Shown: in pieces, positions 44,092 to 64,000 of the stretch | How the letters are laid out: every line of letters starts with the position of its first letter | Numbering within the stretch: the first letter of the stretch is position 1 | From: a virus | IMG/VR virus record: IMGVR_UViG_3300008266_000038 | Location: 6,371-70,370 of that record | Direction: 5' to 3' (one strand) | Length of the DNA: 64,000 nucleotides | Translations under genes and position numbers: made by a program | Notes under the pieces: model-generated | Told to the model about the DNA's origin: nothing | Databases searched by the model: none | Seen by the model: only the letters and a program-made list of their open reading frames with translations

Positions 44092-45636
44092 ATGCCAATT
44101 GGAAAAATCGGCTCATTCGCTACAACAGAAGCACCACAAGATTACATATCAGGAGCTTTACAAAATGTCGAGAACCAATCTTTTCGTTATCGTGCTGAAC
44201 GTAGATTAGCGGAAGAAAAAAAAGAAGCAGCAAAAATTGAAGAAGAAAAACAATTAGCAGAACATTTAAAAAACTTTAATATTGATTTAACAGGAAGTCA
44301 GTCTATTGATGATTTAAGTCAATCTTTTGCTCAAGAATCTTTTGGTAAGTATGCTGAATTGGCAAGACAGCTACAAACAACTACAGACCCAAACGAAAGG
44401 CTAAAATTAAGAACTGAACAAGCTAGAATTAATCAAAATATTAGCGCGTTAAAACAAATCCCTGGAATTTTAAAAGAAAAAGTAGAGTTTATTTCTAAAA
44501 ATGTTGACAAACTTAACCCTGATGATGTTGATATTATTCAAGAAAAACTTGGTATGCTTGAAAAAGGTAACGCTAAAGTTTATCTTGATGAAAACAAAGT
44601 ACCAAGAATAAATATTTATAAAGTTGATGAAAATGGTCAGGTTACAGGTATTCTTGAAAAAGAACAAACTGTTGCTGAGTTTGTAAATAGTATTAACCCA
44701 CACATGAAGAGTAATTATTCTGATATGCTTGAAAAAGCAGTTAAAAATACAGCGGTTGCTGATGTTACTACTCAAACAGGAGTTAATATTTTTCAAGAGA
44801 AAAAAGTTAAGGATGAAATTGCTAATGAAAAAGCTGAAAGTTTTGCTGAAATGATTGTAAATAATCCTGATGAAGCTTATGCTTTTGCTAAAGCTAAAGG
44901 CATTGACTTAAATAACAAAGAAGCGTTAAAAGAAGCAGTTAAAAAAGATTTCAAAAATTCATTAGATGTTACCACTAAACAAGATGTTGATTCTGCTTTA
45001 ATCTCAGCAAACAAACCAACTAAAGATTCAGGAAAAGAAGATAAAAAACCTATTGTTTTTGGTGACGACCCAATTTATGTTACAAAGACAGGAACAAAAG
45101 CCAATACTAAACTAGGAAGAGGTTATATTGGTTATAGTTTAGGAAATCCAAGTATTGATTACGGAGGAGGAAAAAGAAAGGTTATTAGAGGTATTTACGC
45201 AAGTCCTTATGACAACAAAGTGAAACTTTGGGTAGAAGAAGTTGGATTTGAATCTTCAAGTAAAGATGATTTTAAATTAAACGCTACCGGATTAGCTAAA
45301 GAGAAACAAGCTAAAGAAAAAGCTAAAAAAGAGGGGAAAACTTTGGATTACAATGATTTTTATGCAACTTTAAGTCCTAATGATTATGAGTATAGAAAAG
45401 TTTCAACAAAAGACACAAATGAAAGACTTTTAGACTTCAAAGGTGATGCAGGTGAAATTTTAGAGTATGCAAATGAACTTGGTTTTGACGTTGGAGAATT
45501 AGAAACAATGTATAAAGCAAAAGCACAAAGAGATAAAAAATCACCAACTCCTAAAAGTGGAAGTAAACCAAAAACAACTACAAAAAAAAGAACATACAAA
45601 GGCTTAGATTCAAACGGAAACCCAATTTTTGAATAA
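44092..45636 (+). CDS. putative internal virion/ejection protein
   Basis: Helical and charged; position in ejection module. Confidence 0.55.
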   Translation: MPIGKIGSFATTEAPQDYISGALQNVENQSFRYRAERRLAEEKKEAAKIEEEKQLAEHLKNFNIDLTGSQSIDDLSQSFAQESFGKYAELARQLQTTTDPNERLKLRTEQARINQNISALKQIPGILKEKVEFISKNVDKLNPDDVDIIQEKLGMLEKGNAKVYLDENKVPRINIYKVDENGQVTGILEKEQTVAEFVNSINPHMKSNYSDMLEKAVKNTAVADVTTQTGVNIFQEKKVKDEIANEKAESFAEMIVNNPDEAYAFAKAKGIDLNNKEALKEAVKKDFKNSLDVTTKQDVDSALISANKPTKDSGKEDKKPIVFGDDPIYVTKTGTKANTKLGRGYIGYSLGNPSIDYGGGKRKVIRGIYASPYDNKVKLWVEEVGFESSSKDDFKLNATGLAKEKQAKEKAKKEGKTLDYNDFYATLSPNDYEYRKVSTKDTNERLLDFKGDAGEILEYANELGFDVGELETMYKAKAQRDKKSPTPKSGSKPKTTTKKRTYKGLDSNGNPIFE

Positions 45637-45637
45637 T

Positions 45638-48600
45638 ATGACACAAATAGATCCAAATAAAAAAAAGCAATTAGACCAAAACATTAAAAACATGTTGGCT
45701 AACGGAGCTTCTGAAGAAGATGTTATTAAATATTCTAAAGATTTTCATGAAAAGTTTTCAGTAAAAAAAAAAGAATCTTCACAATCACCATCAGTTCAGC
45801 CAAAATCGGTTTCGGTACCGAAAAATGGTTCTTCGGGTACTCAAGAGTTTGAGTATAAACCTGTTTTCGATGAAAGAGGAAGACAAGTAAAGACTAAAAA
45901 TGCTAAAGGCGAACTTGTTCCTTATATGGAAAAAGTACCAAAAGGATTTGCTAGTTCTACTGAAGAAAGAGAAATTGTACGTCAAGAGCAAAAACAAAAA
46001 GCTCAAAAACCGGTAAAACCTACCGTAAAATATCAACAATACAAAACTACTACTGCTCCAAAAAAAGAAGAGGTAGATTTAATTGCTCAAGAAGTTGATG
46101 CTGAATTAAATCAACAAGGTTTTTGGAATGGTATGGTTGCAGGTGCTAAAAAAGGGGCAAACTTTTTATCAGATGTTGTAATGACAGTTGGTACTTTAGG
46201 AACCGAAACAGATGGTCCTGAATTATTCAATGAACAGCCATTCTATAAAGAAGCAGAAGAAGCTAAGAAACAACTTATTTCTGAAAACAAAGGAGATGCA
46301 TCAAAATTAACCCCTGAGCTAATCAAACAACGCACGAAGGATATTGTAGTTCAAAAAAGAACAGAAGGTCTTAAAATAGACAAGAACAATCAGTTTTTGT
46401 CATCACTTCCAGAAGAAGAAAAGAAAGCATTAAATTTAGAAGCGGTAACTCAATACAAAACTTTAAATGATAAAGATAAGTATTTAGCTACCGAGAAAGC
46501 TGTATTGGAAAATGAATTTGAGTCTTTACAAAAAGATTATGCTGTTGTAAAAGCTATTGTAGATAAATCTCAAAAAGAAGGCAAGCCACTTTCCCCTCAA
46601 TTTACCGAAAAAGCATTAGAGCTTGAAGAAAAGTTGAAATCAAAATATGCTGAATTTTCTAATTTAGAAAAAGAGTATGTTAATAATGATAATCAAATCG
46701 GATCAATTGAAGAAGAAGTTGATTTTTTAAAACGTAATTATTCTACTGCAGAAAAATTAAAAACAGATACTAATTTAGGATTAGCTGATATTTATGTTGG
46801 TTTAACTAAAAAAGTACCTGCTTTATTGTATGAAGCAAATGAATTAATTTTAGGAGATACTATTTTTAGTGTTGCTGATGAAGAGTCTGAACAAAAAAGA
46901 AGAGAACTTATTAACGAAATAATTGATTGGGAAGCAGCGAAAACAGAAACAAAATCTAAGTTTAAAAAAAATGTTGAGTTTTCAAACTTAAATACTGAAA
47001 ATTTTGGTAGTTTTTTAGCACAAGAAATTGGAACTCAAATTCCTGTTTTTGCACAAATGATGATGCCCAGTGGAATTGTTTCTTTAGGAGCTACGTCAGC
47101 AGGTGGAAAATATGGTGAAATGGAAATGGAATCAAATCGAATTTCATTCAATCACAACGGAAAAGAATTACAAGGTTTTGAAAAAGAAGATGGAAGTATA
47201 GTTGATGAAACAGGTTTTAAATACAATCCTGATGAAGTAGAAATTACTTCTTTAAGAACTCCTGATTACTCAAAAGGACAAATGGTTACTGCTGCTTTTG
47301 GTTTTGGTACTGCAGAAGCATTACTTGGTGCATTACCTACTAAAAGTGCTTTAGGAAGAGTTGCTAAATCTTTTGAGCAAAATGGTAAAAGAGAATTAAT
47401 AAGAGATGGAATTAAGACTTTATTTATAAAACCATTAAATGAAGCAAAACAAGAAGCTTGGACTGAAGGTGCTACAAGTGTTGTTCAGAACTTTATTGAT
47501 ATGAAAGTTTTAGGTAAAAACGATGTTGGACTTTTCGATAATGTGGACCACGCGATGTTTACCGGTGGAATGTTAGGAGGATTAATGGGGTCTGTTCCGG
47601 CAATTGCAGGCGTAGCGATGCGACCATTCTCAAGTAAAACAGAAACTAAACAAGTTAGAAAAAACCTTGAAATGGTTTTAGGTTTACGCGAACAATTAAA
47701 CAATCAAGAGCTAACTCCTGCTACAAGAAAGGCTATTTCAGACAAAATTACTGCATTAGAAACAGAAAATACACAAATCCTTACTTCGGTTGCAGAAAAA
47801 TCAAAAGGTCTTTCTAAAGAGCAATATGAAGCTATTGTGGATATTGATAAAAAACAAGAATTACTTAGACTTCAAGCAACTGAAATAAAAGCAGATAATA
47901 GTATTTCAAATGAATTAAAAAAACAACTTTTAAATGACTTAAAAGTTGAATTTAGTTCTTTAGAAGACAAACGAAATATTTTAGTTAGCGACAAGGCTAC
48001 AATTTTAGATACATTACCTGATTCTGAAAAAACAAAATTCAGAAATGAAGCTACTCAAATTTTAAAAACTGAGTATAAAGGAGAAGGTGAACCTAAAATT
48101 GAAGATGAAGCAGTTACTAAAAAAGCAATTGAATTATACAATCAATCTAAATCAAATGAAGCAAAAGTCACCAAAAGTACTGTTGAAGAAAAACCTATTG
48201 AGCAACTTGAAACACAACCACAAGCCGAAACACAAACGGAAGTCGGTGAAGTAGAAAATGTTTCCCTTACTAATGAGGTAAACATTCCCGAAAGTGAAGC
48301 TATAACTACTGAAACTTTAACTGAAAATGAAAAACCAACTATAATAAGCACAGATAAAGGAAATTCTCTTAAATTAAATACTAAAAGAACAGAAACATCA
48401 AATAATAAAGATGTGTTTGATTATGAGATATTAGACAACGAAGGAAATAATATTGGGAATATAGAGCTTATAGACTTAACTTCTTACGATTATTATAAAG
48501 AACAAGGTATAGATGGCTTTATAGTAACCAATGTAAAAACTAAAAATAGAGGATATGGAATTGGTAGAGATGCTTATAAATCTTTAATATTAAATTTTAA

Positions 48601-51600
48601 AAAAAGAATATTCTCAGATACATCAAGAACTGAAGATGCTAATAAAATGTGGGATTCTTTAGTTAAAGATGGTTTTGCAGAATATAATGAAAAATTAGAC
48701 AGATATGTATCTATAAAACCTAAAAATGAAACAACACCGAGAGAAAATATTACTCCTGATGGAAACATTCGACCTACAGTTGGAGAAATGGCAGAAATGG
48801 GAAGAATCGAAGAACAAGCCACCGAAAATGCTCCAACAGAAAGTATTTCACCAACCGCTAACATTGGAACAAGTGAAACAGAAAATGAAGTAGAGTATGT
48901 TAAAAAAGAAATCGACAGAGGTATTTTGAATTGGTCTGGTGACATTGGTTCGCCAAGAATTGATTTAGGTATTTCTTGGGCTGATATTCGTAAAGGTGAA
49001 TCAGATATTAGAAAAGGAAATGTAAACACTATTCCTGCAAAAAGATTAATTGAAGCTATCAACAAAGCTAAAAACGAAGGCGGTTACAGATATAAACAAG
49101 GTACAGGAGGTGCAAATATGAAAGGTCAGGAATTTGTAACTTTTGAGGATATTCAAAGAGCTACAAATGAAGACTCACTTACTGATGCTGAGATTGATGA
49201 AATTATGGCTAATCAAAATGAATTAGCTACGGAATATGACGAATACTTTAACTCATTAGATGAGCAAACACAAAACGAAATATTAGAAAATTATGAAAAC
49301 CAACCAAGAGAGATTAGCGAAGATACCCAAAGAGGAGAAAGCGAAATTAATGTTTCTAATGAACAAGAAACAACAGCAGAACCAAAGCAAGAAAAAATAA
49401 GAGAAGGTCTTAAAGATATTTCTACTTTTCAAAAAAACATTTCAGTAAAAACAAAAAATGGTAGAATTGTAGATACTACTTCTTTTAGAATTATTGATGG
49501 TAAAATAATATCAGTTTCTGGTAGAGATGCTAAAAGTAATATTTTAGGAAAAGAAAGTTTTAGTGTTGAAAATTTTGACGAATCAGAATTAAAAAAACTT
49601 TACGATTATGTTTCCCTCATTGATGAGGGTAACATACCTAAAACTACCGAAAACAAAGACATTATTTTAGAAAATGTAAAAAATATATTTGATTTTTTAA
49701 TTCAAAACGGATGGGTATTTACAGAAGATAAATCAAAAAACAATACAATTAAAAATTTTCAAGGTTCAGTTTTTGAAAAAAATGGTAATTATATATCTAT
49801 CAAAAGAGATTATTTATTACAAAATGAAGATGGAGATGTTGTCATGAAAGAAGTTCCTTCAGGAGGAGTTTTTGTTATAACAGAAATATTAATTAATAAA
49901 GATAATCAAGGTCAAGGAACTAAAATTATAAAAGATATTATTAAATATGCAGAATACTCTAATCAAATAATTTATGTTGAACCAAGTCCAATCAAAGGTG
50001 TTAAACAAAATTTAAATCAAAACCAATTAGAAAATTTTTATTCTAAAAACGGGTTTGTCAAAAAAGATGATGGTATTTTTGTTTATAACCCAAAAGAAAA
50101 AACAGTATTAGACAGAATCTTAAACCAAGATGAGTTAAAAGATACGTTAGACTTTTTAGATTCGTTTAAAATTGATCCAAACGATTTAAAAGCTACTCTT
50201 CCTTTTTTACCTGAAGTATGGAATGCGTTTATTGAAGCTGTGAAACTTTCAGTAAAAGCAGGAAATACAATGCGAAATGCTATAAACGAAGCAAAGAAAA
50301 TTCTTGAAACTCAAGGTTTTGATAAGAATGAAATTAGTAAAGTTGTAAGTGCTTTTGAAAAAAAAGTAAATCAACCAAATCAAACATTCGAAAGAAAACC
50401 TGGTAAAAAGGCTTTGTTGAGTAGAATGTCTGAAGGTAAAGATGCTGAAATTAAAAAAGCAATAAAAGACTATTCGTTAGATTACGAAGTAGAAAACCAA
50501 GAAATTGCACAAAGAAATGCTGAACTTTTTGTAGAAAAAGTAGGTGTAAGAGCAGCACTAAAAGCGGTAAGAAGTGGTGAAATTTTAGGTGCTGAAAAAG
50601 CTTTTGTTTATGCTAAAATTATTGATGTAATTTCTAATGAAATAGCGAGCGTTCCAGAGTCAGAAGTTCAAGAATTAGAAGATATGAACGTTCAAATTTT
50701 GGAAGAAATTGCTGTTGAATTTGATAAAGAATCAAGAAATGCAGGTCGTTTTATTTCTGCTTTACAAAAAGTATATTCAAGTTCTAAAGGTAGATATAAT
50801 TTAACAAAGCAAGTTCAATCTTATAGAGCAAGACACGATGGTAATATTCCTGATGAAATCTTGCAAAAATTCATTGAAGCCGATGCTAAAATTAAAGAGT
50901 ACGAAAAACGTATAGAAGAATTAGAAGCTGAAAAGAAAAAACAAGAAGAGGAAAGAGCATTTGAAAATATTGTTGAAGCTATTGCTAGAAAAAACAAAAT
51001 TGACAAATCAAAAGGAATAACTAATAAAGCTAAGGCTAAGGCTTTTGCTGATAAGTTACGTTCTTATAAGTCAACAAATAAAGGCACGCTTAGTGCTGCT
51101 ACTCCAATGAGTTTAGCGGTAGATTTAGCTATTGAAACCGCAGCAACTACAATTGAAGTTTCTGGAAGTATTGCTGATGCAATTCAAAAAGGTATTGAAA
51201 CTATTCGTAAAAGTAAATTAAGTACTGATGAACAAGCAGAAGCGGTACAACAATTCTTAAACGTATTCGATGTTGAAGAAGGTGCTACTCAAAATATAAA
51301 AATTGATGGTGAAGGAAAATTAAAAATTCCACATTCATTGATTAGAGAAAAAGTAGAGCAAGGAATTGACAATATCGAAGATTTAGTTGATGCTATTTAC
51401 GATGAAGTTTCAGAAATGTACCCTGATGAAGAATTGACTAAACGTGATGTTCGTGATGCAATTACTCAATACGGAAAAATAGTAAACCAAACTAAAGACG
51501 AGATTGAAATTCAAATTAGTCAAATGAAAAGTCTTGGTAAACTTCTTTCTGGAATTGAAGATGCATTAAGTGGTAAAAGACCTTTGAGAAGTGGTTTACA

Positions 51601-53782
51601 AAGAAGACCTTTTACTTTAGAAGAAAGAGAGCAAAAGCGTAAATTAAGGGAATTGCTTAGAGATTTACCAATGGATGATGCTGACTTATCAAAAGCTTGG
51701 AAAACTGCATTAGATACAATAAAATCTCGCTTACAAAATGAAATAGCTGATTTAGATGAACAAATAGCCAAAGGTGAAAAGCGTAAATCTGAGAAAAAGC
51801 AAATCGAATATGATGAAGAAGCAAAAGGTTTAAAAGAATTACGTGATAAAAAACGTGAAATTTTAGATGATTTAGTAGGTAAACCTGAATTAACAGAAGA
51901 GCAAAAAATTGAAAAAGCAATGATTTTGGTTCAGAAAAAAATTGACGAACTACAAAAAAACATTGTTGATGGAAATATCGCTTATAAAACAAGACCTACT
52001 CCTGTAACTTCAGCCAAACTTGAAGCGTTAAAAAAACAAAGAGAAGAGTTATACTCAGAGATTGAAAAAATGCGTAAAGAAGCAGGTTTAGCAGAAAAGA
52101 AACGTTTAGATTTAGCTAAAAGAAGTCGTATTAGAAGAATTGAAGAGTTAAAAAAGAAAATTGAAAATAGAGATTTTTCTAAAAGAGAGCAAAAACCATT
52201 ACCAATAGATGCTGAGTTATTGGATATTGAATCAAAACTTCAAGAGCAAAAAGCGATTTACGAAAAAGAGAAGTATATTGACGAGCTAAAAAACAGAAGT
52301 AGATTTAGAAAATATGTTTCTACAATTGTTGATTTTATTGGAATTACTCGTGTTTTAAAAGCAGGTGGAGAGTTTTCGCAAGTTTTGGTACAACAAGGAT
52401 TTTTAACACCTCAAATACTTGTAACAAATCCTAAAGCATTTTTTACAGCAATGGCAAGATTAGGAAAAGCGTTTGCTTCACCTGATACTGCTAAAAGATA
52501 TGAGGATGAAATGAAAGCAAGTCCTTTATATCCTTTGATGCAAAAAACTAAATTATCATTAACAGGAACAGACCATAAATTAGATGCTCAAGAAGAAAAT
52601 TACCAATTAGATATGGTAACTGATATTTGGAATATGATTGGCGATAAATTAGATAGAATTACAGGTGAAACTGAAATTCTTACTTTAACCGGATTATTTA
52701 AAAAAGCGTTCGGTAAAGAATTAACAGAATCGGACAAAAAAACACTTGGAACTCAATTTAAAGAAGCGAGTTTTTGGAAAATGTTTGAAAGAGCAGCTGT
52801 TACTTATTCCAACTATATAAAAATGGTTAAGTTTGAGCAAGGAGTGAAAGAATTGCAAAAAGATTTGAAAGACCCAATTAATGATATTGAAGATTATAAA
52901 AAAGTTGCAAATTACATTAATGTTTTTTCAGGAAGAGCAAGTTTAGGTAAAGCAGAATTTTTAAGTAAAGATGCGGCACTAATATTTTTCTCTTTACGAA
53001 ATGCGGTTTCTCAAATTCAACAATTAAATCCATTTTACTACTTAGTTACTTTAGGTGATGCAAAACAATTCCAGGAAATTAAATCCGGAAAAGATTTGAA
53101 AAACATAAAACCTACTGTTGCTCAAAAAATGGCTGTAAAATCATTTATGACATCTATTATTGCAATTACAGGATTTAAAATGGCTTTTTTAGCCGTTGCT
53201 AATGCAGGAGCAGACGATGAAGAAGACAAATGGAAATTAGAGTCGGACCCAAGAAGTTCTGATTTTGGAAAATTAAGAAAAGGTAAAACTACATTTGATA
53301 TGTGGCATGGTCTTAACGGATTATTCGTCATGTATTCAAGAATATTTACACAACAAACTAAATCTACAAAATCAGGCGAAATTAAAGATTTAGGTAAAGG
53401 TTTTGGGACTCCAACAACATCAGAACTTTTAACAAGATATGTTACTAATAAATTTGCTCCGACTGCAGGTTATATGTGGAGATTAGGAAATACGCATCAA
53501 GAAATTGGTACAGATGGTAAAAAATATAGAGTGGACCAATATGGAAATGTTTATGGTGAAAAAGAAATGTTAGATTTGTTTATTCCTATTTACTATGGTT
53601 CAGTTTATGAGATAGCTAAAGAAGATCCAGACACTTATCAAGCGTTCTTAACTTCATTAGGTATTTTGGGTATGTCTGTTGGAACTGACCCTGATGGTGA
53701 AAAGTTTAGAAAGGCTTCTTCGGAAGGATTTCAATTACCAAAACCGCCATCTCCGCCCCAACCGCCAACACCAAATTACTAA
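45638..53782 (+). CDS. giant internal virion (polyvalent) protein with two GNAT-like domains
   Basis: About 2714 aa, coiled coils; NRGYGIG...ANKMW and NQGQGTKII...LENFYSKNGF; C-terminal DPRSSDFGK region; likely ATG at 45638. Confidence 0.7.
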   Translation: MTQIDPNKKKQLDQNIKNMLANGASEEDVIKYSKDFHEKFSVKKKESSQSPSVQPKSVSVPKNGSSGTQEFEYKPVFDERGRQVKTKNAKGELVPYMEKVPKGFASSTEEREIVRQEQKQKAQKPVKPTVKYQQYKTTTAPKKEEVDLIAQEVDAELNQQGFWNGMVAGAKKGANFLSDVVMTVGTLGTETDGPELFNEQPFYKEAEEAKKQLISENKGDASKLTPELIKQRTKDIVVQKRTEGLKIDKNNQFLSSLPEEEKKALNLEAVTQYKTLNDKDKYLATEKAVLENEFESLQKDYAVVKAIVDKSQKEGKPLSPQFTEKALELEEKLKSKYAEFSNLEKEYVNNDNQIGSIEEEVDFLKRNYSTAEKLKTDTNLGLADIYVGLTKKVPALLYEANELILGDTIFSVADEESEQKRRELINEIIDWEAAKTETKSKFKKNVEFSNLNTENFGSFLAQEIGTQIPVFAQMMMPSGIVSLGATSAGGKYGEMEMESNRISFNHNGKELQGFEKEDGSIVDETGFKYNPDEVEITSLRTPDYSKGQMVTAAFGFGTAEALLGALPTKSALGRVAKSFEQNGKRELIRDGIKTLFIKPLNEAKQEAWTEGATSVVQNFIDMKVLGKNDVGLFDNVDHAMFTGGMLGGLMGSVPAIAGVAMRPFSSKTETKQVRKNLEMVLGLREQLNNQELTPATRKAISDKITALETENTQILTSVAEKSKGLSKEQYEAIVDIDKKQELLRLQATEIKADNSISNELKKQLLNDLKVEFSSLEDKRNILVSDKATILDTLPDSEKTKFRNEATQILKTEYKGEGEPKIEDEAVTKKAIELYNQSKSNEAKVTKSTVEEKPIEQLETQPQAETQTEVGEVENVSLTNEVNIPESEAITTETLTENEKPTIISTDKGNSLKLNTKRTETSNNKDVFDYEILDNEGNNIGNIELIDLTSYDYYKEQGIDGFIVTNVKTKNRGYGIGRDAYKSLILNFKKRIFSDTSRTEDANKMWDSLVKDGFAEYNEKLDRYVSIKPKNETTPRENITPDGNIRPTVGEMAEMGRIEEQATENAPTESISPTANIGTSETENEVEYVKKEIDRGILNWSGDIGSPRIDLGISWADIRKGESDIRKGNVNTIPAKRLIEAINKAKNEGGYRYKQGTGGANMKGQEFVTFEDIQRATNEDSLTDAEIDEIMANQNELATEYDEYFNSLDEQTQNEILENYENQPREISEDTQRGESEINVSNEQETTAEPKQEKIREGLKDISTFQKNISVKTKNGRIVDTTSFRIIDGKIISVSGRDAKSNILGKESFSVENFDESELKKLYDYVSLIDEGNIPKTTENKDIILENVKNIFDFLIQNGWVFTEDKSKNNTIKNFQGSVFEKNGNYISIKRDYLLQNEDGDVVMKEVPSGGVFVITEILINKDNQGQGTKIIKDIIKYAEYSNQIIYVEPSPIKGVKQNLNQNQLENFYSKNGFVKKDDGIFVYNPKEKTVLDRILNQDELKDTLDFLDSFKIDPNDLKATLPFLPEVWNAFIEAVKLSVKAGNTMRNAINEAKKILETQGFDKNEISKVVSAFEKKVNQPNQTFERKPGKKALLSRMSEGKDAEIKKAIKDYSLDYEVENQEIAQRNAELFVEKVGVRAALKAVRSGEILGAEKAFVYAKIIDVISNEIASVPESEVQELEDMNVQILEEIAVEFDKESRNAGRFISALQKVYSSSKGRYNLTKQVQSYRARHDGNIPDEILQKFIEADAKIKEYEKRIEELEAEKKKQEEERAFENIVEAIARKNKIDKSKGITNKAKAKAFADKLRSYKSTNKGTLSAATPMSLAVDLAIETAATTIEVSGSIADAIQKGIETIRKSKLSTDEQAEAVQQFLNVFDVEEGATQNIKIDGEGKLKIPHSLIREKVEQGIDNIEDLVDAIYDEVSEMYPDEELTKRDVRDAITQYGKIVNQTKDEIEIQISQMKSLGKLLSGIEDALSGKRPLRSGLQRRPFTLEEREQKRKLRELLRDLPMDDADLSKAWKTALDTIKSRLQNEIADLDEQIAKGEKRKSEKKQIEYDEEAKGLKELRDKKREILDDLVGKPELTEEQKIEKAMILVQKKIDELQKNIVDGNIAYKTRPTPVTSAKLEALKKQREELYSEIEKMRKEAGLAEKKRLDLAKRSRIRRIEELKKKIENRDFSKREQKPLPIDAELLDIESKLQEQKAIYEKEKYIDELKNRSRFRKYVSTIVDFIGITRVLKAGGEFSQVLVQQGFLTPQILVTNPKAFFTAMARLGKAFASPDTAKRYEDEMKASPLYPLMQKTKLSLTGTDHKLDAQEENYQLDMVTDIWNMIGDKLDRITGETEILTLTGLFKKAFGKELTESDKKTLGTQFKEASFWKMFERAAVTYSNYIKMVKFEQGVKELQKDLKDPINDIEDYKKVANYINVFSGRASLGKAEFLSKDAALIFFSLRNAVSQIQQLNPFYYLVTLGDAKQFQEIKSGKDLKNIKPTVAQKMAVKSFMTSIIAITGFKMAFLAVANAGADDEEDKWKLESDPRSSDFGKLRKGKTTFDMWHGLNGLFVMYSRIFTQQTKSTKSGEIKDLGKGFGTPTTSELLTRYVTNKFAPTAGYMWRLGNTHQEIGTDGKKYRVDQYGNVYGEKEMLDLFIPIYYGSVYEIAKEDPDTYQAFLTSLGILGMSVGTDPDGEKFRKASSEGFQLPKPPSPPQPPTPNY

Positions 53783-56766: not shown

Positions 56767-57464
56767 TGTGTAATATTTCTTCTTTTTACTTTTAAAATTT
56801 GAACATAAGGTTTTTTTTGCTCGTCTGACTCCCATTCCTGGATTAAAACTTCAAGTTGTTCTCGGTTAATTCCTTCTGTTATTTCATCAGCGTATTTTTT
56901 TACTCTTTGAATAAATGGAACTTCTTTAAACTTTTCGTAAGTTTTCTTCACATCTTCAATTGAAACTAAATCGGCATTCATTTTTGATTTTTCTTTGATA
57001 TACTGTTGCTCTCTTAAATCAGCTTTTTGCTCCATGTACATCGGAAACCATTCACCAAAAATTAAATTTGAATCAACTCCTCGCTTTGTACTTCCAAATT
57101 TTCCACTTCTTGCAAGTTTAAAAAACAAAATAATATCTTGAAGACTTTCGTATTTGAAATTTTCAATTGTGTCAATGGTTAAAATCTCAATCTGACTTTC
57201 TGAAAGTTTTGTCGAAAAACCAAATGATTCAATGAAACGATTCACTAAAACTTTCACTACTGAAAATCCAATTGTAGCATTATCACCACTAAAAACTTTT
57301 CTAACAGTTGGTTGATCTAAAGTTTCACTCAAAGTTAAATTCATTTCCAAAGGAGCCAACTGAGCAGTTCCAGAAACAATCGCTTTACTTAAAGTAATCG
57401 TGTTGAGCAATCTCTGATTGGACTGCATCTCTAAAGATTTGTTCGTTTGATTTTGAAGTTCCAT
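56763..57464 (-). CDS. replication accessory protein (possible helicase-loader role)
   Basis: Directly after initiator; SLQDIILFFKLARSGKFG. Confidence 0.4.
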   Translation of the reverse strand: MELQNQTNKSLEMQSNQRLLNTITLSKAIVSGTAQLAPLEMNLTLSETLDQPTVRKVFSGDNATIGFSVVKVLVNRFIESFGFSTKLSESQIEILTIDTIENFKYESLQDIILFFKLARSGKFGSTKRGVDSNLIFGEWFPMYMEQKADLREQQYIKEKSKMNADLVSIEDVKKTYEKFKEVPFIQRVKKYADEITEGINREQLEVLIQEWESDEQKKPYVQILKVKRRNITQ

Positions 57465-58245
57465 TTGCTGTATTATTTTTATAATTGTCTTCTAAAATTT
57501 TAACAAAGTTAGTCGGATTCATAATCCAATCAAAATTAGATACCCATCCATTTTTATTTTCCCCATTCAAAAAATTACTCTCTGAAACTTTTTGAAAAAC
57601 ATTACCTAGAGTTTCTAATGAAGTTTCTTTAATTCTTGCTGAAATCATTTTTTTTCTTTGTTCTGTAATTTTTTCAACTTTTGGTAATCTATTACAAACT
57701 GAATTAAAAACTGAAATTATTTCTTGAAAATTAATTTTTTCGATTTTGTCTTTTTTTACAATTTCATTTTTAATTTCAGCTTCATATTCAACTTCATTTT
57801 CATATTCAGAGTTTGCTTGAGTGTTTGCTTTTGTTTTTGCTGTAGCAAAATCTTTCAGTTTTTTAGCTGTTTTTTTACCGCCATTTGAACCTGCTGAAGC
57901 CCTTTTATCGCTAATAATTCCATCTTTATACATCCTCTTTTGAATCATTAAATCACCATCAATTTGAATCACATTTTCAGACAAAAGTTCTTCAATTCCA
58001 GAAACTATTGTAGGCAAATCATACGGCAAAAATTTAGCAACTTTGTAAGCAAAATTTAAAATTTGCTTATCATTTTGCTTGTCTTTTTGCTTCAGCAAAA
58101 TAGTCCCATAAGTTTCGGACTTATGCATTACACACATTAATCTTATGTAAATTCCTGTAGCAGAAGCAGAACATTCCATTAACTTTTCATCAGTTAAAAA
58201 ATCCTGAACATACAAAGGAATATAAGGTTGATTTCTTAAAGCCAT
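57385..58245 (-). CDS. replication initiator/replisome organiser
   Basis: PYIPLYVQDFL N-terminus, RASAGSNGG linker, C-terminal FLNGEN..GW..NFDWIM...KILEDNY; internal iterons. Confidence 0.75.
   Translation of the reverse strand: MALRNQPYIPLYVQDFLTDEKLMECSASATGIYIRLMCVMHKSETYGTILLKQKDKQNDKQILNFAYKVAKFLPYDLPTIVSGIEELLSENVIQIDGDLMIQKRMYKDGIISDKRASAGSNGGKKTAKKLKDFATAKTKANTQANSEYENEVEYEAEIKNEIVKKDKIEKINFQEIISVFNSVCNRLPKVEKITEQRKKMISARIKETSLETLGNVFQKVSESNFLNGENKNGWVSNFDWIMNPTNFVKILEDNYKNNTANGTSKSNEQIFRDAVQSEIAQHDYFK
57812..58100. repeat. iteron clusters (putative origin) inside initiator gene
   Basis: TTTGCT(T/G) at 57812/57824/57836 and 58062/58074/58086, 12-bp period, each followed by inverted AGCAAAA. 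Confidence 0.6.
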
Positions 58246-58248
58246 AAT

Positions 58249-58536
58249 TTAATTATTTAGCTTATTATAAAGCAAAACTGCTTTTTCTTTTTGTTCTTCT
58301 GGAAGCTTGTGGATTGCGTAAGAGTACGTATTTCCAAACTTATTACATCGTTTATCCATAACTCTATCTAAACTCAATCCATGAACTGTTTGAAGCTGTG
58401 AAACTCTAGTCCTGAATCCGCTTAAATATGGAAAATCAAATATAGATACGTGTCCTTGTAAAATTAAAGTAAGTAAAACTTCTTGCTCACTTGTTTTAGG
58501 AAAAGGAAATCCTTGAAATAAATTGTCGTTTTTCAT
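58249..58536 (-). CDS. winged-HTH-like protein
   Basis: EVLLTLILQGHVS...FRTRVSQL...YAIHKL. Confidence 0.55.
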   Translation of the reverse strand: MKNDNLFQGFPFPKTSEQEVLLTLILQGHVSIFDFPYLSGFRTRVSQLQTVHGLSLDRVMDKRCNKFGNTYSYAIHKLPEEQKEKAVLLYNKLNN

Positions 58537-58578
58537 GGTTTTTATTTTTAAATTTCTTACTAATTTTTAGAAAAAAAA

Positions 58579-58743
58579 TTACGTTAATTTTTCAATAAGA
58601 AAAATCTCAGAAGTTTTCCATTTGTGGTTTGCAATCCTGGAATACAAAGTAGGTTTTGAAATTCCTATTTTTTTTACCAATTCGTCATCGGTGTAATAGT
58701 TTCTTAATCTTTGTACTTTTGAAGTAGTTTCAAGTTTTGTCAT
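58579..58743 (-). CDS. Cro-like HTH protein
   Basis: TDDELVKKIGISKPTLYSRI; likely ATG at 58743. Confidence 0.7.
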   Translation of the reverse strand: MTKLETTSKVQRLRNYYTDDELVKKIGISKPTLYSRIANHKWKTSEIFLIEKLT

Positions 58744-58780
58744 ATTATATAAAATTAAATTCTTTACTAAAATTTTGAAT

Positions 58781-58810
58781 AAAAAACTGCCTGAATAAAC
58801 AAGCAGTTTT
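58781..58810 (-). terminator. intrinsic terminator/attenuator
   Basis: minus strand AAAACTGCTTG-TTTATT-CAGGCAGTTTTTT. Confidence 0.65.
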
Positions 58811-58909
58811 AAACTTTCCCAAATTTTCAATTAACCTTGTCGGTGTTTTGTTATACCAAAAGTAGTGAAAAGTTTTGAATAAAAAAATATTTACTAAATA
58901 AATTTTATA

Positions 58910-59317
58910 CTAAAATGGTAGTGGGTCATCCGATTCATCATCATTTCCACTACTACTCGGATGAAATGGTTGTTCGTTTACAGGTGGAATAGTAGGTGCT
59001 GTACTTGGTGAACGTTGACCTTGTGGTTGAGGTGCTGAATTGGTATTTGGTAGTTGAATTTTCCAACATACAATAGTGTTGAAGTATTTGGTTTCTCCTT
59101 GAGGATTAACCCATTCACGACCTCTAATGTTAATGTGACATTCTACCTCTTGTCCTTCGGTGAAACTTTCAATAATATCTACTCTGTCGCCATGCAGTTC
59201 TAATTGAATAGTCTGTGCATATTGTTCGTTTGTTTCTATAACAAATTCTCTTTTTGAGAAAGTTGCTGAAACTTGTTGTATAGGTTTGATAACCTTAATG
59301 ATTCCGTTTAATTGCAT
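58910..59317 (-). CDS. DUF3127-family OB-fold ssDNA-binding protein
   Basis: FSKREFVIET..QY.Q...INIRGREW...KYFNTI.CWKI; acidic DDPLPF tail. Confidence 0.85.
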   Translation of the reverse strand: MQLNGIIKVIKPIQQVSATFSKREFVIETNEQYAQTIQLELHGDRVDIIESFTEGQEVECHINIRGREWVNPQGETKYFNTIVCWKIQLPNTNSAPQPQGQRSPSTAPTIPPVNEQPFHPSSSGNDDESDDPLPF

Positions 59318-59319
59318 AA

Positions 59320-59712
59320 TTATTCTTCTTTAAAAAGTTGTTTTAAGTTTACAGGTTGAAAACCTTGTGGTTTTAGAATTTTACCATTTGGATCACGAAG
59401 TACTTTTCCATCTGGACCTACTTTTGTCATATTATTCAAATGAACTAATTCAAAAGCAGGCTCGATTAAATCTTGCAATCCATTCGAATTTATGGTTCCA
59501 GCTAAAATATAGAGCATATCTACGCAAGCATCTAAAATTTCTACTTTGTCTTTGTTAATACAAGCGGTAAAATACTCTTTGTTTTCTTCTGCCATTAACT
59601 CGTATCTCAGATTTGCTTCTTTTACAGAAATTAAAGAAGGATTTTGATTTACAGTTTGGTCTGTTGCATTTTGAAATTCTGCAACTTGTTCTAAAATTTG
59701 ATGAAAGTACAT
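59320..59712 (-). CDS. MazG-like NTP pyrophosphohydrolase
   Basis: LRYELMAEENKEY...EILDACVDMLY...VHLNNMTK...GKILKP. Confidence 0.85.
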   Translation of the reverse strand: MYFHQILEQVAEFQNATDQTVNQNPSLISVKEANLRYELMAEENKEYFTACINKDKVEILDACVDMLYILAGTINSNGLQDLIEPAFELVHLNNMTKVGPDGKVLRDPNGKILKPQGFQPVNLKQLFKEE

Positions 59713-59714
59713 AG

Positions 59715-60599
59715 TTATTGTTGGTTTAATTTGATTTGTGAATAATACTCGATTGCCGGACCTAACTTTTCCAACATTTTTTGTTCAATTTCTTTGTCAC
59801 GAGAGATTTTGTAAATTTTAACCATTTCCTCTTTTTTGTAAGCCGGATTAGTTGAGTATTTCATATTTCTCTCGATTTGTTCATAGATAGGAATTAACTT
59901 TTCCTCAAGTAATTGAACATCTTCGTTGCTCATAGATGACGAAAAGTACTTGTAAAAAGTCTTTTTCTTTTCATTGTCTATTAAGTCTTGTGGAGTATCT
60001 GTAAGGCAATAACATAACCAAGCTTCATCTACATCATACAAAAACATATAGCAACGTAATTGGTATTCGTAAATAGAACTCATTTTAGCGTTTAGGAAAG
60101 TTTTTGGATTCCAACTTGCTTTAATATCGATAACTACTTTTTTACCATCTACTTCGCAAAATCCATCGGCTTCGCCAGTTAACCCTACTTCAATATCTGT
60201 TCCTTCTAACTGACCAATGATTTCGTTTTTACGCTCATCGTTTTTAAGAATGAAGTCGTTTAGGTAATCTGAAACTAACTCTAAGCCATCCTGTTCGTTC
60301 ATTAAACCTTTTGTTAAAAACTTATTGTTTAAGTCATCGTAAAAGCCTTTTTCATTTAACAACCAAATCTTTTCAACTTCTGATTTTGCTGTATCTGAAA
60401 GCTGTGGAGGTGCATCGCGTTTAGCTTTTAAATCAAGGTAAAAATCTTTTTGTTTTTCAGTCAATGGTTTTCCACCATTTCTGATTCTATCTTCAAACTC
60501 GTTTAAAGTTTCAAGTTGTTTTTCGGTAATGGAAGCCCCGCGACTTTCGGTCATGAGGTTTCCAAACGAACTAGCTCTAAAATATACTACTTGGCTCAT
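59715..60599 (-). CDS. PD-(D/E)XK exonuclease (YqaJ/RecE-like partner of RecT)
   Basis: FRASS, KG.MNE, TGEAD...IDIKAS, YQLRCYM. Confidence 0.8.
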   Translation of the reverse strand: MSQVVYFRASSFGNLMTESRGASITEKQLETLNEFEDRIRNGGKPLTEKQKDFYLDLKAKRDAPPQLSDTAKSEVEKIWLLNEKGFYDDLNNKFLTKGLMNEQDGLELVSDYLNDFILKNDERKNEIIGQLEGTDIEVGLTGEADGFCEVDGKKVVIDIKASWNPKTFLNAKMSSIYEYQLRCYMFLYDVDEAWLCYCLTDTPQDLIDNEKKKTFYKYFSSSMSNEDVQLLEEKLIPIYEQIERNMKYSTNPAYKKEEMVKIYKISRDKEIEQKMLEKLGPAIEYYSQIKLNQQ

Positions 60600-60602
60600 A
60601 AA

Positions 60603-61592
60603 TTACTTTTTAGTTAGTTCTTTTTTCTTAGCTTGAAACAAATCGTAAAGTTCTATGTCATCATCTTCAATTCCTGGAAGGCATTTATCTAATTCTTCAA
60701 TTGATTTAGATTTATCGATATGTTTGATAACTCTTTCTCTTTCCTTTGTACCATTTACTGCAGAAACATCGATAGTTACCTCTTCATGATCCACGTATTG
60801 AGTTTCAACATCAACTGATTCTTCATTTTGATTAGAAAACTTATCATTTTTAATAACTGCTTGGTCTGAGATTAAAGCTTTTTGAACAGAAGATGATAAT
60901 GGAGCGTCTTTTGATAAATGAAGTTTAATAACTGTTTTAGATGCCATTTTCGAAAATTGATCCTTCCATAATCCGGTTCCAAACTTTTTATAGGTTTGAG
61001 AATAAGTTTTAGCATGAAGCTCTACCTCTTCTTTAGTCATATAAAAAGTACTTTCAAAGCCATTCACTAATTTAAAGTAAGAAACAAAACCAATCACAGG
61101 CTTAGTAAGTCTTTCTTTATCATTTTGAATCCAATTAAATTTAATTTCACCAGTCATTCTATCTACCGTTTCAATCTCACCTTCTCTTACATCTGAGTCA
61201 TTCATTTTTAAGAATTGACCTGAACGCATTGCTAATTGCTTTAAACCTTTGGCTGATAATTGGAATTGAACCATTGTTTTGTAGCTTCCATCAGATTGTT
61301 TTGTGTTAAACGGAACCAAGAATGCATGACCTATACTTGGATTAATTGGTAAATCTAATGTTGCAGCCATTAAAGCAGCGGTGTAAAGAGAATTTTGGTC
61401 AGCATTAGCTAATTGACCATTTGAATTAACTACAGACAAGATTGAGGTAACAAAAGCCACTCCTTTGTCTTTATCCCCAAGAACTTCGGCAAATTTATTC
61501 TTAATACTATCTGTGTTTAAGAAATTGGAAATAGATTTAATTCCGGTAGCTGCCAATTGCTGATTTTGATTTGTTGTTTGTACTTGTGACAT
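60603..61592 (-). CDS. recT: RecT-family ssDNA annealing recombinase
   Basis: AATLDLPINPSIGHAFLVPF...QFQLSAKGLKQLAMRSG...HAKTYS...W..F..MA.KTVIK. Confidence 0.92.
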   Translation of the reverse strand: MSQVQTTNQNQQLAATGIKSISNFLNTDSIKNKFAEVLGDKDKGVAFVTSILSVVNSNGQLANADQNSLYTAALMAATLDLPINPSIGHAFLVPFNTKQSDGSYKTMVQFQLSAKGLKQLAMRSGQFLKMNDSDVREGEIETVDRMTGEIKFNWIQNDKERLTKPVIGFVSYFKLVNGFESTFYMTKEEVELHAKTYSQTYKKFGTGLWKDQFSKMASKTVIKLHLSKDAPLSSSVQKALISDQAVIKNDKFSNQNEESVDVETQYVDHEEVTIDVSAVNGTKERERVIKHIDKSKSIEELDKCLPGIEDDDIELYDLFQAKKKELTKK

Positions 61593-61597
61593 TTTAC

Positions 61598-61819
61598 TTA
61601 ATTTTTAAAATTGATTAGTGATTCGTTTGTGATTTTAGGTGTTTTACCTGAGTTGTCAACTTTTAGAGTTCCTTTTTCTATTAGTCGATATACTTTGTTT
61701 CGGCTACACTTTAAACTTTTAGCGACTTCTGTAATAGTGAGTAAATCTTTCACTACTTCGGTATCGCTTTGAATGATTAAAGTTTCACCAGGTTTTAGTT
61801 TTACAATTCTTTGTGACAT
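61598..61819 (-). CDS. excisionase-like HTH protein
   Basis: LLTITEVAKSLKCSRNKVYRLIEKGTL. Confidence 0.75.
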   Translation of the reverse strand: MSQRIVKLKPGETLIIQSDTEVVKDLLTITEVAKSLKCSRNKVYRLIEKGTLKVDNSGKTPKITNESLINFKN

Positions 61820-61822
61820 ATA

Positions 61823-63286
61823 TTACTTTTTAGTTGGTACATTGTAGTTTTCTGAAAGCCAATTGCAAAATTCTTCGGCATCATTAATAAATCGACAATC
61901 TTCGCTATTTGAGAACTTTTCTAAAATATCAGCCCAAGTTTCTTCTAAAACAAAACAATCGTCTTTAATTTCAGCAATTCTTCTTGTAACTAATTTACCT
62001 GTTATTGTTTCAACAGTTGAACTATTGAAAATTTTAACTTCACCCTCTTTATAAGGAAGACCTGTAGCTGTATCTATAAGAACACCATTACCATCTTCAA
62101 TTAATCTACCTTGTTCTACGTAAGATTCCTCACTTGTAGAATACCCATCCGCTTTGATTGGTTCTTCTTTTTTATCACGAAGTTTAATTTGAGTTTTAAC
62201 CCACTCCAAATGTTGACTCCATATTTCATCACTAGAAGTTTCAGCAAGATTTTTGTTGTTAGCCCATTGCCCTTTACCTAATTCATCAAAAATAACATCT
62301 TCTTCAATCCCTAAATCAGTCAATTGCTTTATTCTTGACTCAGTTCTTAATTTTATTTGTTTAGCTTCAAACTCAGCCTTTTCTTTCAAGAAGTTTTCAC
62401 GCTCGATTCTTTGCTCTTCAGCTTCTTTTAACTGTAAAACTTTTGCTAATAAAAGTTCTTGAATCTGATTTCTTTTTTCAGCGTATTCTGATTGTAATTC
62501 TTGACAATCTAAAGCAGTTTGTGTTTCAAATTCATTCTGAGTAACAGAAATATTTCTGAACTCTAAATTATTGATTACATACAACCAATTTTTTTCCCAA
62601 GAGTCAATTTTAGTTTTGATTGCATTAACACGATTCTGTTCTGCTTGAATTTGAGCCAATCTTTTACGCTCTAAGCGAAGTTCTTCTTCAGCTGTAAGTA
62701 ATATTATTGTTGAATCTAATTTAGCCCTCAAATCGCTTACTTTATCAGTAAATAAAATCTCAAACTCCTCTAATTCTTTAACATCAACAACATCAACACT
62801 TTCTTTAAAAGTTTTTTTACACTCTTCAATATTTTCATACTTCATTAAAGAAAAAGCTTGCTCCCAAACATCTCCAAATTCTTTTATTTTAGCTTTAATA
62901 CCTTCAACACGTTTTTGTTCTAAAAGCAATTTCTCTTGACGTTCTTTCTCTTTAATTTCTTCCCAACGTGAAACCTCATCTTGTTGTTTGTTTTCAATAG
63001 GAAGTACGGTATCGATTAATTCATCGTAAGCGGTTTTTACCGGAACTAAAATATGATCCTTAATCTTTTTCTCAACCGCTTTCTGTTCTTTTTGTAAATC
63101 AGTACGCAATGTTCTTGCCCCTGTTCGACTTTTTTTAGCTTCTTCATAAGTAGAGTTGTCTTTTATTTCAACGTACTTGAATTGCTCTAATTTTGCAGAA
63201 ACTTCTTGTTTTTTATTTTGAAGCTCTGGAAGTTGTTGAATATTAAATTCATCCAATTTGATTAAATTTTGTTCTTGCTTTGCCAT
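61823..63286 (-). CDS. long coiled-coil protein (DUF1351-like N-terminus)
   Basis: YEEAKKSRT..RTLRTDL pattern; helical repeats; upstream of RecT. Confidence 0.5.
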   Translation of the reverse strand: MAKQEQNLIKLDEFNIQQLPELQNKKQEVSAKLEQFKYVEIKDNSTYEEAKKSRTGARTLRTDLQKEQKAVEKKIKDHILVPVKTAYDELIDTVLPIENKQQDEVSRWEEIKEKERQEKLLLEQKRVEGIKAKIKEFGDVWEQAFSLMKYENIEECKKTFKESVDVVDVKELEEFEILFTDKVSDLRAKLDSTIILLTAEEELRLERKRLAQIQAEQNRVNAIKTKIDSWEKNWLYVINNLEFRNISVTQNEFETQTALDCQELQSEYAEKRNQIQELLLAKVLQLKEAEEQRIERENFLKEKAEFEAKQIKLRTESRIKQLTDLGIEEDVIFDELGKGQWANNKNLAETSSDEIWSQHLEWVKTQIKLRDKKEEPIKADGYSTSEESYVEQGRLIEDGNGVLIDTATGLPYKEGEVKIFNSSTVETITGKLVTRRIAEIKDDCFVLEETWADILEKFSNSEDCRFINDAEEFCNWLSENYNVPTKK

Positions 63287-63310
63287 TTTATTTGATTTTA
63301 AATTTTATTT

Positions 63311-63532
63311 TTATATAAGTTCTATTTCTGTGTCAAAGTCATATCCGTTTTCTTTATCTATCCAACAGCAATGTGATTGATGTCCTTTTATATTCCCTTC
63401 CCATTTTACAATAAGACCGTCACCATGTGCATTAATTTTTACATACACATCTTTTATAGTATCGTTATCTTCCATAAAGTGAAATCTTGCACCTATTGGA
63501 GCGTCTTTGAATTTCATTATTACATTTTCCAT
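63311..63532 (-). CDS. hypothetical protein
   Basis: First ORF after leftward promoter. Confidence 0.65.
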   Translation of the reverse strand: MENVIMKFKDAPIGARFHFMEDNDTIKDVYVKINAHGDGLIVKWEGNIKGHQSHCCWIDKENGYDFDTEIELI

Positions 63533-63566
63533 AGCAATAAAATTAGATTAATAATTGATTATAGTA

Positions 63567-63598
63567 CAAATGTAACAAACGGAACAATACGAAACAAA
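63567..63598 (-). promoter_or_regulatory. promoter of leftward recombination/replication arm
   Basis: TTTG-N20-TACATTTG on minus strand. Confidence 0.7.
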
Positions 63599-63742
63599 TT
63601 TATTTGTAAAAATGTTCAAAAAAGTGTCGGAGTAAAAAATAAACAAAAATTTAACAAATACCGAAAAAATAGTATTTTAGCGGTTTCACGAGTTAATCTT
63701 GGTAGGATTAAGAAACGGAACAAAAAATAATTTAAAAAAATG

Positions 63743-63773
63743 TTGCGTTGTATTGTTTTTATTTTTAAGTTTG
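63743..63773 (+). promoter_or_regulatory. rightward promoter (Pc-like position)
   Basis: TTG(63743)-N20-TAAGTTTG(63766-63773). Confidence 0.65.
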
Positions 63774-63790
63774 TACTCGATGTTATATGA

Positions 63791-63921
63791 AAATAACGTT
63801 CTGTGGCTTTGTCTTGTTGCCAAAAAATAAGACCTAATATTTAATAAACACAATGAATACAAATACAAAACAAACTGAAAATTTAGCCGAATGTGGCGAT
63901 AAGTCAAAACCACTGTTAGAT
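63791..63921 (+). repeat. attC-like imperfect inverted repeat
   Basis: Left arm TAACGTTCTGTGGCTTTGTCTTGTTGCC vs reverse complement of right arm TAACAGTGGTTTTGACTTATCGCC; ends in GTTAGAT (GTTRRRY). Confidence 0.6.
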
Positions 63922-64000
63922 GAAGTTTCTTTCAGCGTTGGAACTTACTCAATTATAAATGATAATACGCCTAAATATTGCCATTGGAGTGAAGGATTAA
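63853..64000 (+). CDS. ORF starting inside the attC-like loop (partial, runs off window)
   Basis: MNTNTKQTENLAECGDKSKPLLDEVSFSVGTYSIINDNTPKYCHWSEGL..., open to the edge. Confidence 0.55.
   Translation, partial: MNTNTKQTENLAECGDKSKPLLDEVSFSVGTYSIINDNTPKYCHWSEGL

Follow-up and report, generated by a model that had tools for sequence, protein, structure and literature searches.

We describe here a family of hairpins first seen at the right-hand end of a 64,000-nucleotide (nt) stretch of viral DNA (the window), which covers positions 6,371 to 70,370 of the IMG/VR virus record IMGVR_UViG_3300008266_000038 (G000; 70,370 bp, GC content 0.30). Positions are those of the window unless prefixed G000:C1, which marks the window's source record, and G and L numbers are our handles for genomes and loci. 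At this end a 125-nt imperfect hairpin, similar to the attC sites of integrons, separates a promoter-like site from most of an 82-residue open reading frame (ORF1), with which a rightward operon of small genes begins (Table 1). The record ends in an exact 114-bp direct repeat (G000:C1 1-114 = 70257-70370, window 63887-64000); hence, it is either circular, circularly permuted or provided with direct terminal repeats, the genome unit is 70,256 bp, and the region of the hairpin and ORF1 is divided between the two record ends. Judged from this sequence, the phage genome is circular, with 70,256 bp, and the operon runs on beyond the window's right end.

Table 1. The hairpin, its parts and the genes of the rightward operon (aa, amino acids)
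Feature	Position	Strand	Basis or remark
Hairpin element copy 1 (TAAC...GTTA, 125 nt, attC-like)	63794..63918	+	covariance model R1, 108.8 bits, E 2.4e-22
Left flank of hairpin 1, putative junction of array and non-cassette DNA	63782..63793	+	no pairing with its own right flank
Core TAACG, 5' arm of terminal helix	63794..63798	+	candidate cassette junction TAA/C; homology to L002/L003 begins here
Unpaired bulge TTCT (4 nt), 5' arm	63799..63802	+	alignment columns 6-9 unpaired
Left arm of main stem, including conserved GCTT with the mismatched C	63803..63821	+	alignment columns 10-28
A-rich loop with leader and ORF1 ATG (63853)	63822..63894	+	sequence reading
Right arm ending in TGTTA (ORF1 codons 15-22)	63895..63918	+	alignment columns 107-130
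Right flank of hairpin 1	63919..63930	+	10/12 complementary to G000:C1:213-224, which immediately precedes the TAAC of hairpin 2
ORF1, 82 aa in full	63853..64000 in the window (first 49 codons); ends at G000:C1:215, across the terminal repeat	+	ORF reading
ORFs after ORF1, in order 52, 88, 86 and 86 aa	G000:C1	+	ORF reading
C5 DNA methyltransferase (dcm)	G000:C1:1762-2655	+	PF00145, E 1.5e-26
ORF of 86 aa between methyltransferase and recombinase	G000:C1	+	ORF reading
Tyrosine recombinase (phage Int), 416 aa, operon end	G000:C1:2941-4191	+	PF00589, E 5.7e-9, 36 bits
Promoter-like site, Bacteroidetes type	63743..63773	+	TTG (63743-63745), 20 nt, TAAGTTTG (63766-63773)

An earlier sequence-only reading of the window had proposed that an integron-like cassette array begins at this hairpin, and much of its description is borne out. 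The motifs that it named (GTTATAT, 63782-63788; AAATAAC, 63791-63797; GTTAGAT, 63915-63921), the ATG in the loop and the ORF open to the window's end are all in the sequence, and the arms form an imperfect hairpin of 23 pairs, with two 1x1 mismatches and the asymmetric bulge that it had noted near the TAAC end, of 4 nt and placed after TAACG. Its appeal to the attC boxes holds in part: GTTAGAT matches GTTRRRY, whereas AAATAAC fails RYYYAAC and GTTATAT fails GTTRRRY. Folded by itself as DNA, a 141-nt stretch with hairpin 1 does no better than expected by chance: its energy is -7.88 kcal/mol, that of shuffles -8.09 +/- 2.05 (z 0.10), with 100 of 200 shuffles folding as well. The pattern RYYYAAC-N40-140-GTTRRRY starts at nine places on the two strands of the phage genome.

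The hairpin is the first of six on the plus strand (window 63794, followed by G000:C1 225, 521, 864, 1272 and 1696), one in each intergenic gap, and the expectation that an array starts here, with further TAAC...GTTA hairpins between short ORFs to the right, is thus confirmed by the five additional copies. Each gap of the operon opens with TAACGTTy-N4-GCT, four of the copies starting exactly 9 nt past the preceding stop codon, and TAACGTT occurs only five times in the rest of the phage genome, both strands included. The motif is also present in five IMG/VR loci that encode relatives of the 82-aa protein, where it precedes their own small genes. A partner arm ending in TGTTA was found for all 23 tested copies of the 34-nt motif, usually 100-105 nt downstream (range 66-169). 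Duplexes of these copies with their own partners have an energy of -29.9 +/- 6.1 kcal/mol, as against -18.6 +/- 4.1 with the arms of other copies, -16.8 +/- 3.3 with shuffled downstream sequence and -12.7 +/- 3.5 for random genomic 34-mers; the own partner ranks first among the arms in 17 of the 23, second or third in five and 17th in one. This comparison among copies, unlike the fold of the single sequence, demonstrates that hairpin 1 is real.

The same structure emerges from an alignment (A3) of 17 full elements from five phages, for which the left end (TAACG) was a selection criterion and the right end (TGTTA) was not. The structure tested on it starts with a terminal helix of 5 bp and a bulge of 4 nt, followed by 4 bp, one 1x1 mismatch and 14 bp. 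Its stem cells are paired in 88.4% of cases, compared with 66.4 +/- 1.6 in shuffles (none of 500 reaching the observed value) and 38-48% when the partners are slid, and compensatory changes on both sides are found at 15 of the 23 pairs. An invariant G.U closes the terminal helix in all 17 copies, the TGTTA 3' end is likewise invariant (17/17), and within TAACG the T, C and G never vary, both A's being kept in 16 of the 17. Across the family, lengths lie between 91 and 196 nt, most often at 125-129, G.T pairs account for 65 of 512, and the sole recurrent mismatch is a C.A (1x1) seen in 13 copies. The sense strand is the more stable one in 19 of 23 phage copies. Of the 23 ATGs that open the downstream ORFs, 16 are in the loop, six fall 27-50 nt past the hairpin and one is at its end. 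Two other structures were considered and rejected, namely a short local hairpin directly after TAACGTT (mean z of -0.84, RNAalifold giving no structure on the short alignment A2) and an outer helix formed by the hairpin's own flanks (-3.90 kcal/mol for own versus -4.06 for mismatched flanks). In the literature, a search for the motif string returned only primers.

Beyond the hairpins themselves, we observed complementarity between the 12 nt that follow the GTTA of one hairpin and the 12 nt that precede the TAAC of the next. In phage arrays this pairing reaches 8.70 of 12 positions on average (23 pairs, 19 of them at 8 or more), in comparison to 4.18 for a hairpin's own flank and 3.88 for others (maximum 7). 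In the bacterial arrays described below the corresponding value is 7.86 (43 pairs, 33 at 8 or more), in comparison to 4.06 for own, 3.98 for previous and 3.87 for other flanks. This complementarity with the next flank matches the prediction of a circular cassette intermediate.

Two cut positions fit the flank pairing, and it is the block shared with relatives that decides between them. The segment common to G000 and L002 (G000 70164..232, 88.8% identity over 329 nt) and that common to G000 and L003 (G000 70167..234) both consist of hairpin 1 and ORF1, while the flanking genes differ and the following hairpins diverge after TAACGKT. Therefore, the unit comprises a hairpin and the ORF following it, with the junction at the left core, which we would place between TAA and C on the folded strand (TAA/C). 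Integron bottom strands are cut on this same side. As the shared block is bounded by the TAAC of hairpins 1 and 2, the leader, start codon and body of the ORF belong to one cassette. The sequence-only reading was right that gene order varies among relatives, as it does around the shared ORF1. Conversely, its junction at the G/TT of the right arm (...KPL/LDEV...) is not borne out, since protein and DNA similarity to the relatives runs through that point and the block starts at the left TAAC; its picture of a hairpin-borne leader fused to the next variable cassette fails because all these parts lie in a single cassette; and its argument for exchange from a 6/7 versus a 5/7 match compared the wrong partners.

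Certain side observations touch on these modules. An unrelated 149-aa protein of L003 (L003:8235-8300) resembles the leader of ORF1 (window 63853-63918) in its first ~22 residues, with 81% identity over 42 nt, and the likeness stops where each right arm begins following its own left arm. ORF5 (86 aa, G000:C1:1420-1685) has counterparts with 93%, 75% and 55% amino-acid identity in the virus contigs L013, L014 and L015, where the homology is confined to the ORF and does not include the flanking hairpin; possibly, this gene stands within a cassette in one genome and outside a cassette in another. Hairpin 2 (G000:C1:225-418) spans 194 nt and encloses nearly all of the 52-aa ORF2. At this hairpin, metagenome contigs from three runs join position 282 to 389, skipping 106 nt, and related copies of hairpin 2 may have an ordinary short loop. 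None of the sequencing runs covers more than a third of L001:1-2800, and the joints in the metagenome contigs, whose sides are short (20-49 nt, 85% likeness), do not form part of the evidence.

The covariance model R1 recovers the one copy in the window (63794-63918), four in L001 and copies in relatives outside the seed, and misses the 194-nt copy at G000:C1 225. In virus records of 33.5, 35.5, 130.6, 11.9 and 10.7 kb it identifies 9, 4, 10, 7 and 3 copies, respectively, restricted to a single strand in each record. It has one weak match (26 bits) on the Polaribacter phage P12002L, in which several gaps beside methyltransferase genes fold into hairpins of 50-65 nt with the same ends, which may correspond to the published attC sites. 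Relatives of the phage integrase are found at 28% identity in Tenacibaculum, Rikenellaceae and Psychroflexus, and Bacteroidota are therefore indicated for the phage. In bacteria, the element is present in 72 of 151 sampled genomes of Flavobacteriaceae, the family of the Psychroflexus genome (E<=1e-5), and in 89 of 151 genomes of the same class (E<=1e-6; 88 of 150 without the unpublished G253); per-genome copy numbers are lower bounds, at most 23 candidates having been scored in each genome. The bacterial copies read yAACG...TGTTr. Separately, a bin labelled Neisseriaceae (L009, RXKI01000133.1; L023, G009:C53) contains a copy of the phage integrase with 90% identity and an element scoring 98.6 bits among phage-like genes, and L009 and L023 are probably phage contigs assigned to the bin of the wrong organism.

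On bacterial chromosomes the elements form dense, co-oriented arrays, such as 12 copies in 9 kb (G099:C2), 9 copies (G037:C26) and 10 copies (G089:C6). Arrays of 7-12 copies have a median spacing of 783 nt with one ORF between elements; of 41 such ORFs, 40 lie opposite the folding strand, and the same strand is still the more stable one in 17 of 18 copies from bacteria. The two arrays first seen adjoin a gene for a tyrosine recombinase. This array-linked integrase matches the family NF040815 ('site-specific tyrosine recombinase/integron integrase') with 226 bits (cut-off 220) and TIGR02249 (integron integrase) with 205 bits, which is below the cut-off of 265 and above the 185 bits of XerC/XerD; among solved structures it scores 151 bits against XerA, 132 against IntI4 and 92 against XerD. 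Homologues are encoded by 104 of the 151 Flavobacteriaceae genomes (E<=1e-40). Among the 30 best integrase loci, 14 carry a total of 18 elements within 1.5 kb, every one of them 3' of the integrase end and on the opposite strand, and in 10 of the other 16 loci the contig stops after fewer than 500 nt on the downstream side. By a hand count that makes no correction for relatedness, 63 of 72 genomes with the element have the integrase, as against 41 of 79 without it. Single-gene units separated by a 126-nt element lie 3' of a XerA/integron-integrase-like gene in L036 (G099:C19:1-9000), L040, L042, L037, L038 and L045. From their sequences, these chromosomal arrays of Bacteroidia look like an unreported class of integrons.

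The phage itself has a tyrosine recombinase of the kind that the sequence-only reading had advised looking for, ~3 kb downstream and outside the window, but it is not of the IntI type. It belongs to generic families only (PF00589; XerC, E 8e-11), its XerC/XerD matches in NCBIfam being weak. A genome-wide PF00589 search of five other element-bearing virus records gave no match (0/5). As this search also misses the Int of G000 itself, which hmmscan scores at 36 bits, the result says nothing about absence.

These observations suggest that phages of Bacteroidota swap accessory early genes as cassettes. The flank signature and the integron-integrase-like genes next to the bacterial copies uphold the assignment to an integron-like family, and we consider it probable that at least six attC-like sites, beginning with hairpin 1, split the rightward early operon into integron-like cassettes. 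A cassette would extend from the C of one TAA/C core to the TAA of the next and would contain a hairpin and then, usually, one ORF. The proposed hairpin architecture is that of a TAACG/TGTTA terminal helix, the 4-nt bulge, a stem of ~19 bp with the conserved C.A mismatch and a variable loop. Upon excision as a circle, the 12 nt before the next core would be joined to the left arm and could pair with the 12 nt after the right arm, thereby creating one stem of ~40 bp with the junction at the bulge. As in integrons, a tyrosine recombinase acting on the folded strand would cut out and insert the cassettes. The likely enzyme would be the XerA/integron-integrase-like recombinase of the host, which stands beside arrays of the same element, the phage Int being a less likely candidate. 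In the phages, where the ORFs are on the folding strand, the loop might have been co-opted as an A-rich translation start, with the right arm often read as codons.

Several points weigh against this interpretation. The array-linked bacterial integrase is without the IntI-specific insertion in the catalytic domain, TIGR02249 positions 181-242 being spanned by ~20 residues. This insertion is described as essential for integron function (PMC8138268). The phage Int has no match to TIGR02249 at E<=0.01 and is unrelated to the array-linked enzyme (BLASTP E 0.37). A tblastn search with seven phage cassette proteins found none of them in the bacterial array loci at E<=1e-3. The half-site that should close the sixth (dcm) cassette was not found, the best candidate matching at 12 of 16 positions and lying inside the integrase gene. 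Similar hairpins recur with different neighbours on both sides, e.g. at L002 2625 and L003 6464, and hairpins that recur alone require a second breakpoint or attC homogenisation. The phage ORFs share the folding strand, in contrast to integrons and to the bacterial arrays; the unpaired spacer is one-sided, and the R boxes fit RYYYAAC/GTTRRRY in part. Finally, whereas the structure, the family, the arrays, the flank signature, the module boundaries and the integrase neighbourhood in bacteria have been demonstrated, the circular form, the recombining enzyme and any current activity in the phage are inferred.

The same material admits three other explanations. The hairpins could be cis-acting RNA elements of a polycistronic early mRNA, which insulate or present the start region or serve as a site for a double-strand ribonuclease or a regulator, while shuffling proceeds via short core homology and general recombination (e.g. 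by a phage RecT-like protein), as proposed for the promoter-stem-loop motifs (PeSL) of T4-type phages. The phage copies taken by themselves accord well with this: every one is on the sense strand, copy 1 follows the promoter-like site by ~20 nt, the start codons are positioned in the loop or shortly after the hairpin as detailed above, wobbles compatible with G.U are frequent on the sense strand in addition to the invariant one, and the stems, at 22-30 bp, have a length that suffices for RNase III. The difficulty lies in the bacteria, where the folding strand is opposite to nearly all inter-element ORFs and the element does not belong to the mRNA. Further, an RNA element should pair through its own flanks, whereas the pairing seen spans an ORF from one hairpin to the next; tight placement 3' of a recombinase gene is not accounted for; cutting of both arms would separate the start codon from the body of the ORF; and a comparison of L001, with its five copies, and ten other loci with Rfam gave no relevant family. 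On balance, we regard a primarily RNA-level role as unlikely.

A still less probable account, in our estimation, would make the hairpins miniature inverted-repeat elements (MITEs) of Bacteroidia, akin to ERIC, moved by a transposase in trans and collecting at insertion hot spots that we see as arrays. Their size of ~126 nt, terminal inverted repeats, multiplicity per genome and frequent position at contig ends would suit such elements, and so would the recurrence of similar hairpins with different neighbours noted above and the piling up of metagenome contigs on hairpins, including a 72-kb contig that matches only hairpin 3 (519-636) and is unlike on both sides. MITEs common to Flavobacterium and its phages are in print (PMC11602168). 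Nevertheless, the arms differ between copies with compensatory changes in place of the conservation expected of transposase sites; every copy of an array faces the same way, a single gene separating it from the next; a direct target duplication was not apparent by eye; the first pair of the terminal helix covaries (T-A, C-G), and the terminal TA therefore belongs to the stem; and neither a constant position and strand with respect to a gene for a tyrosine recombinase nor the off-by-one pairing of flanks would be expected. As for a functionless chance inverted repeat in AT-rich intergenic or N-terminal coding DNA, the unexceptional fold of the single sequence and the nine starts of the attC-like pattern are what it can call upon, and the partner-arm test, the covariation, the covariance-model matches, the distribution and the flank pairing refute it, leaving it a negligible probability.

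Extending the cassette interpretation from the phage to its presumed hosts, we propose more tentatively, and with somewhat less than even confidence, that Bacteroidia might possess a class of integrons with an integrase devoid of the IntI insertion and attC-type sites of ~126 nt which standard tools have not reported. The phages would carry the same sites with reversed gene orientation and with the loop as start, and a shared exchange machinery of host and phage would move early accessory genes, such as those for DNA methyltransferases, as circles. Integrons are a standard device for gene capture and reshuffling known mainly from Proteobacteria, and phage-borne attC clusters were first reported in 2023. 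If our proposal is right, the Flavobacteriaceae and other Bacteroidia, which form a large and ecologically dominant group, along with their phages, would use a distinct but related cassette system missed by the standard detectors. It would also explain the assembly of the variable early-gene regions of these phages, provide in the model R1 a handle for finding cassettes and linking phages to hosts, and demonstrate that one hairpin can serve both recombination and, as a module, the start of translation.

Some further features surround the array in the phage genome. The promoter-like site upstream of hairpin 1, which would drive the rightward operon, had been called a consensus promoter; it conforms to TTG-N18-21-TAnnTTTG, the Bacteroidetes-type pattern, while the site is absent from the matches of a sigma-70 promoter scan. 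The former pattern has 23 matches in the window as against 10.9 +/- 3.2 in 100 shuffles, none of which reaches 23. No terminators were found, blastn of window 62800-64000 against a phage collection returned no match, and no family match was found for the 82-aa ORF1 protein. A divergent, leftward operon on the minus strand (window 57385-63532) consists of closely packed replication/recombination-type genes, including ORFs of 329 and 294 aa beside one of 135 aa whose tail is acidic; this operon has separate matches to the TAnnTTTG-type promoter at 63567-63602 and no hairpin elements inside. The structural region contains very long ORFs on the plus strand, of 2717 aa (window 45629-53782) and 1519 aa (37426-41985).

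Among known systems, regulatory-looking repeats of phages offer one point of comparison. The PeSL of T4-type phages are described as promoter-terminator motifs that work by homologous recombination (PMC2839356, PMC4122927). They too are repeated before small variable early genes and bound modules, whereas the present element is a 125-nt covarying hairpin whose flanks bear the signature of a circle and which is linked, in hosts, to a recombinase gene. Likewise, the intergenic inverted repeats of the ERIC and Correia type resemble it in being multicopy imperfect palindromes, and, together with the MITEs of PMC11602168, in their size of ~126 nt, intergenic position and presence in host and phage. 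They differ in that the present elements have co-oriented arrays, covarying arms, no target duplication visible by eye and a recombinase neighbourhood.

The closest parallel is with integrons and with clusters of attC sites lacking an integrase (CALINs). Qi et al. 2023 (PMC9892861) reported CALINs from 17 phages, including the Polaribacter phage P12002L, whose CALIN has two methyltransferases, and IntI1 recombined five of six attC sites tested from three virulent phages. For Bacteroidetes, In0 elements and one complete integron in Salinibacter had been noted earlier (IntegronFinder 2 preprint), and a review lists Bacteroidota among the phyla with integrons (PMC8618304). Our literature search turned up no description of the present arrays as integrons, which is not proof that none exists. 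In general, attC sites measure ~57-141 bp, a range that includes the 125 nt of the window copy, have RYYYAAC/GTTRRRY boxes with an unpaired central spacer and extrahelical bases between the box pairs, and alternate with promoter-less ORFs opposite to the folding (bottom) strand. In common with integrons and CALINs, the sites described here are structured, sequence-variable imperfect hairpins with one better-folding strand and with conserved AAC...GTT ends, whose full 7-mer boxes fit only sometimes; they are co-oriented with about one ORF between them, and as in integrons each site of an array is a hybrid, the outer helix of which would become complete in the circular cassette alone; in bacteria a tyrosine recombinase of the Xer/IntI branch stands beside the arrays, and phages carry DNA methyltransferase cassettes. 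They depart from integrons in the missing IntI-specific insertion of the neighbouring integrases, in an outer (R-box) helix of ~16 bp and not 7, in a spacer that, although similarly placed, is a one-sided 4-nt bulge, in a C.A mismatch in place of bulged bases, in phage ORFs that share the folding strand and have their start codon within the loop, and in the bacterial integrase being co-directional with the cassettes. Sedentary chromosomal integrons, such as the Vibrio superintegron, are long arrays of single-gene cassettes with sites of uniform length and unrelated ORFs, at which draft assemblies are broken. The arrays of Bacteroidota differ from them in phylum, integrase subtype and site consensus, and share with them the long single-gene arrays, the ~126-nt sites alike within a lineage, the unrelated ORFs and the assembly breaks.

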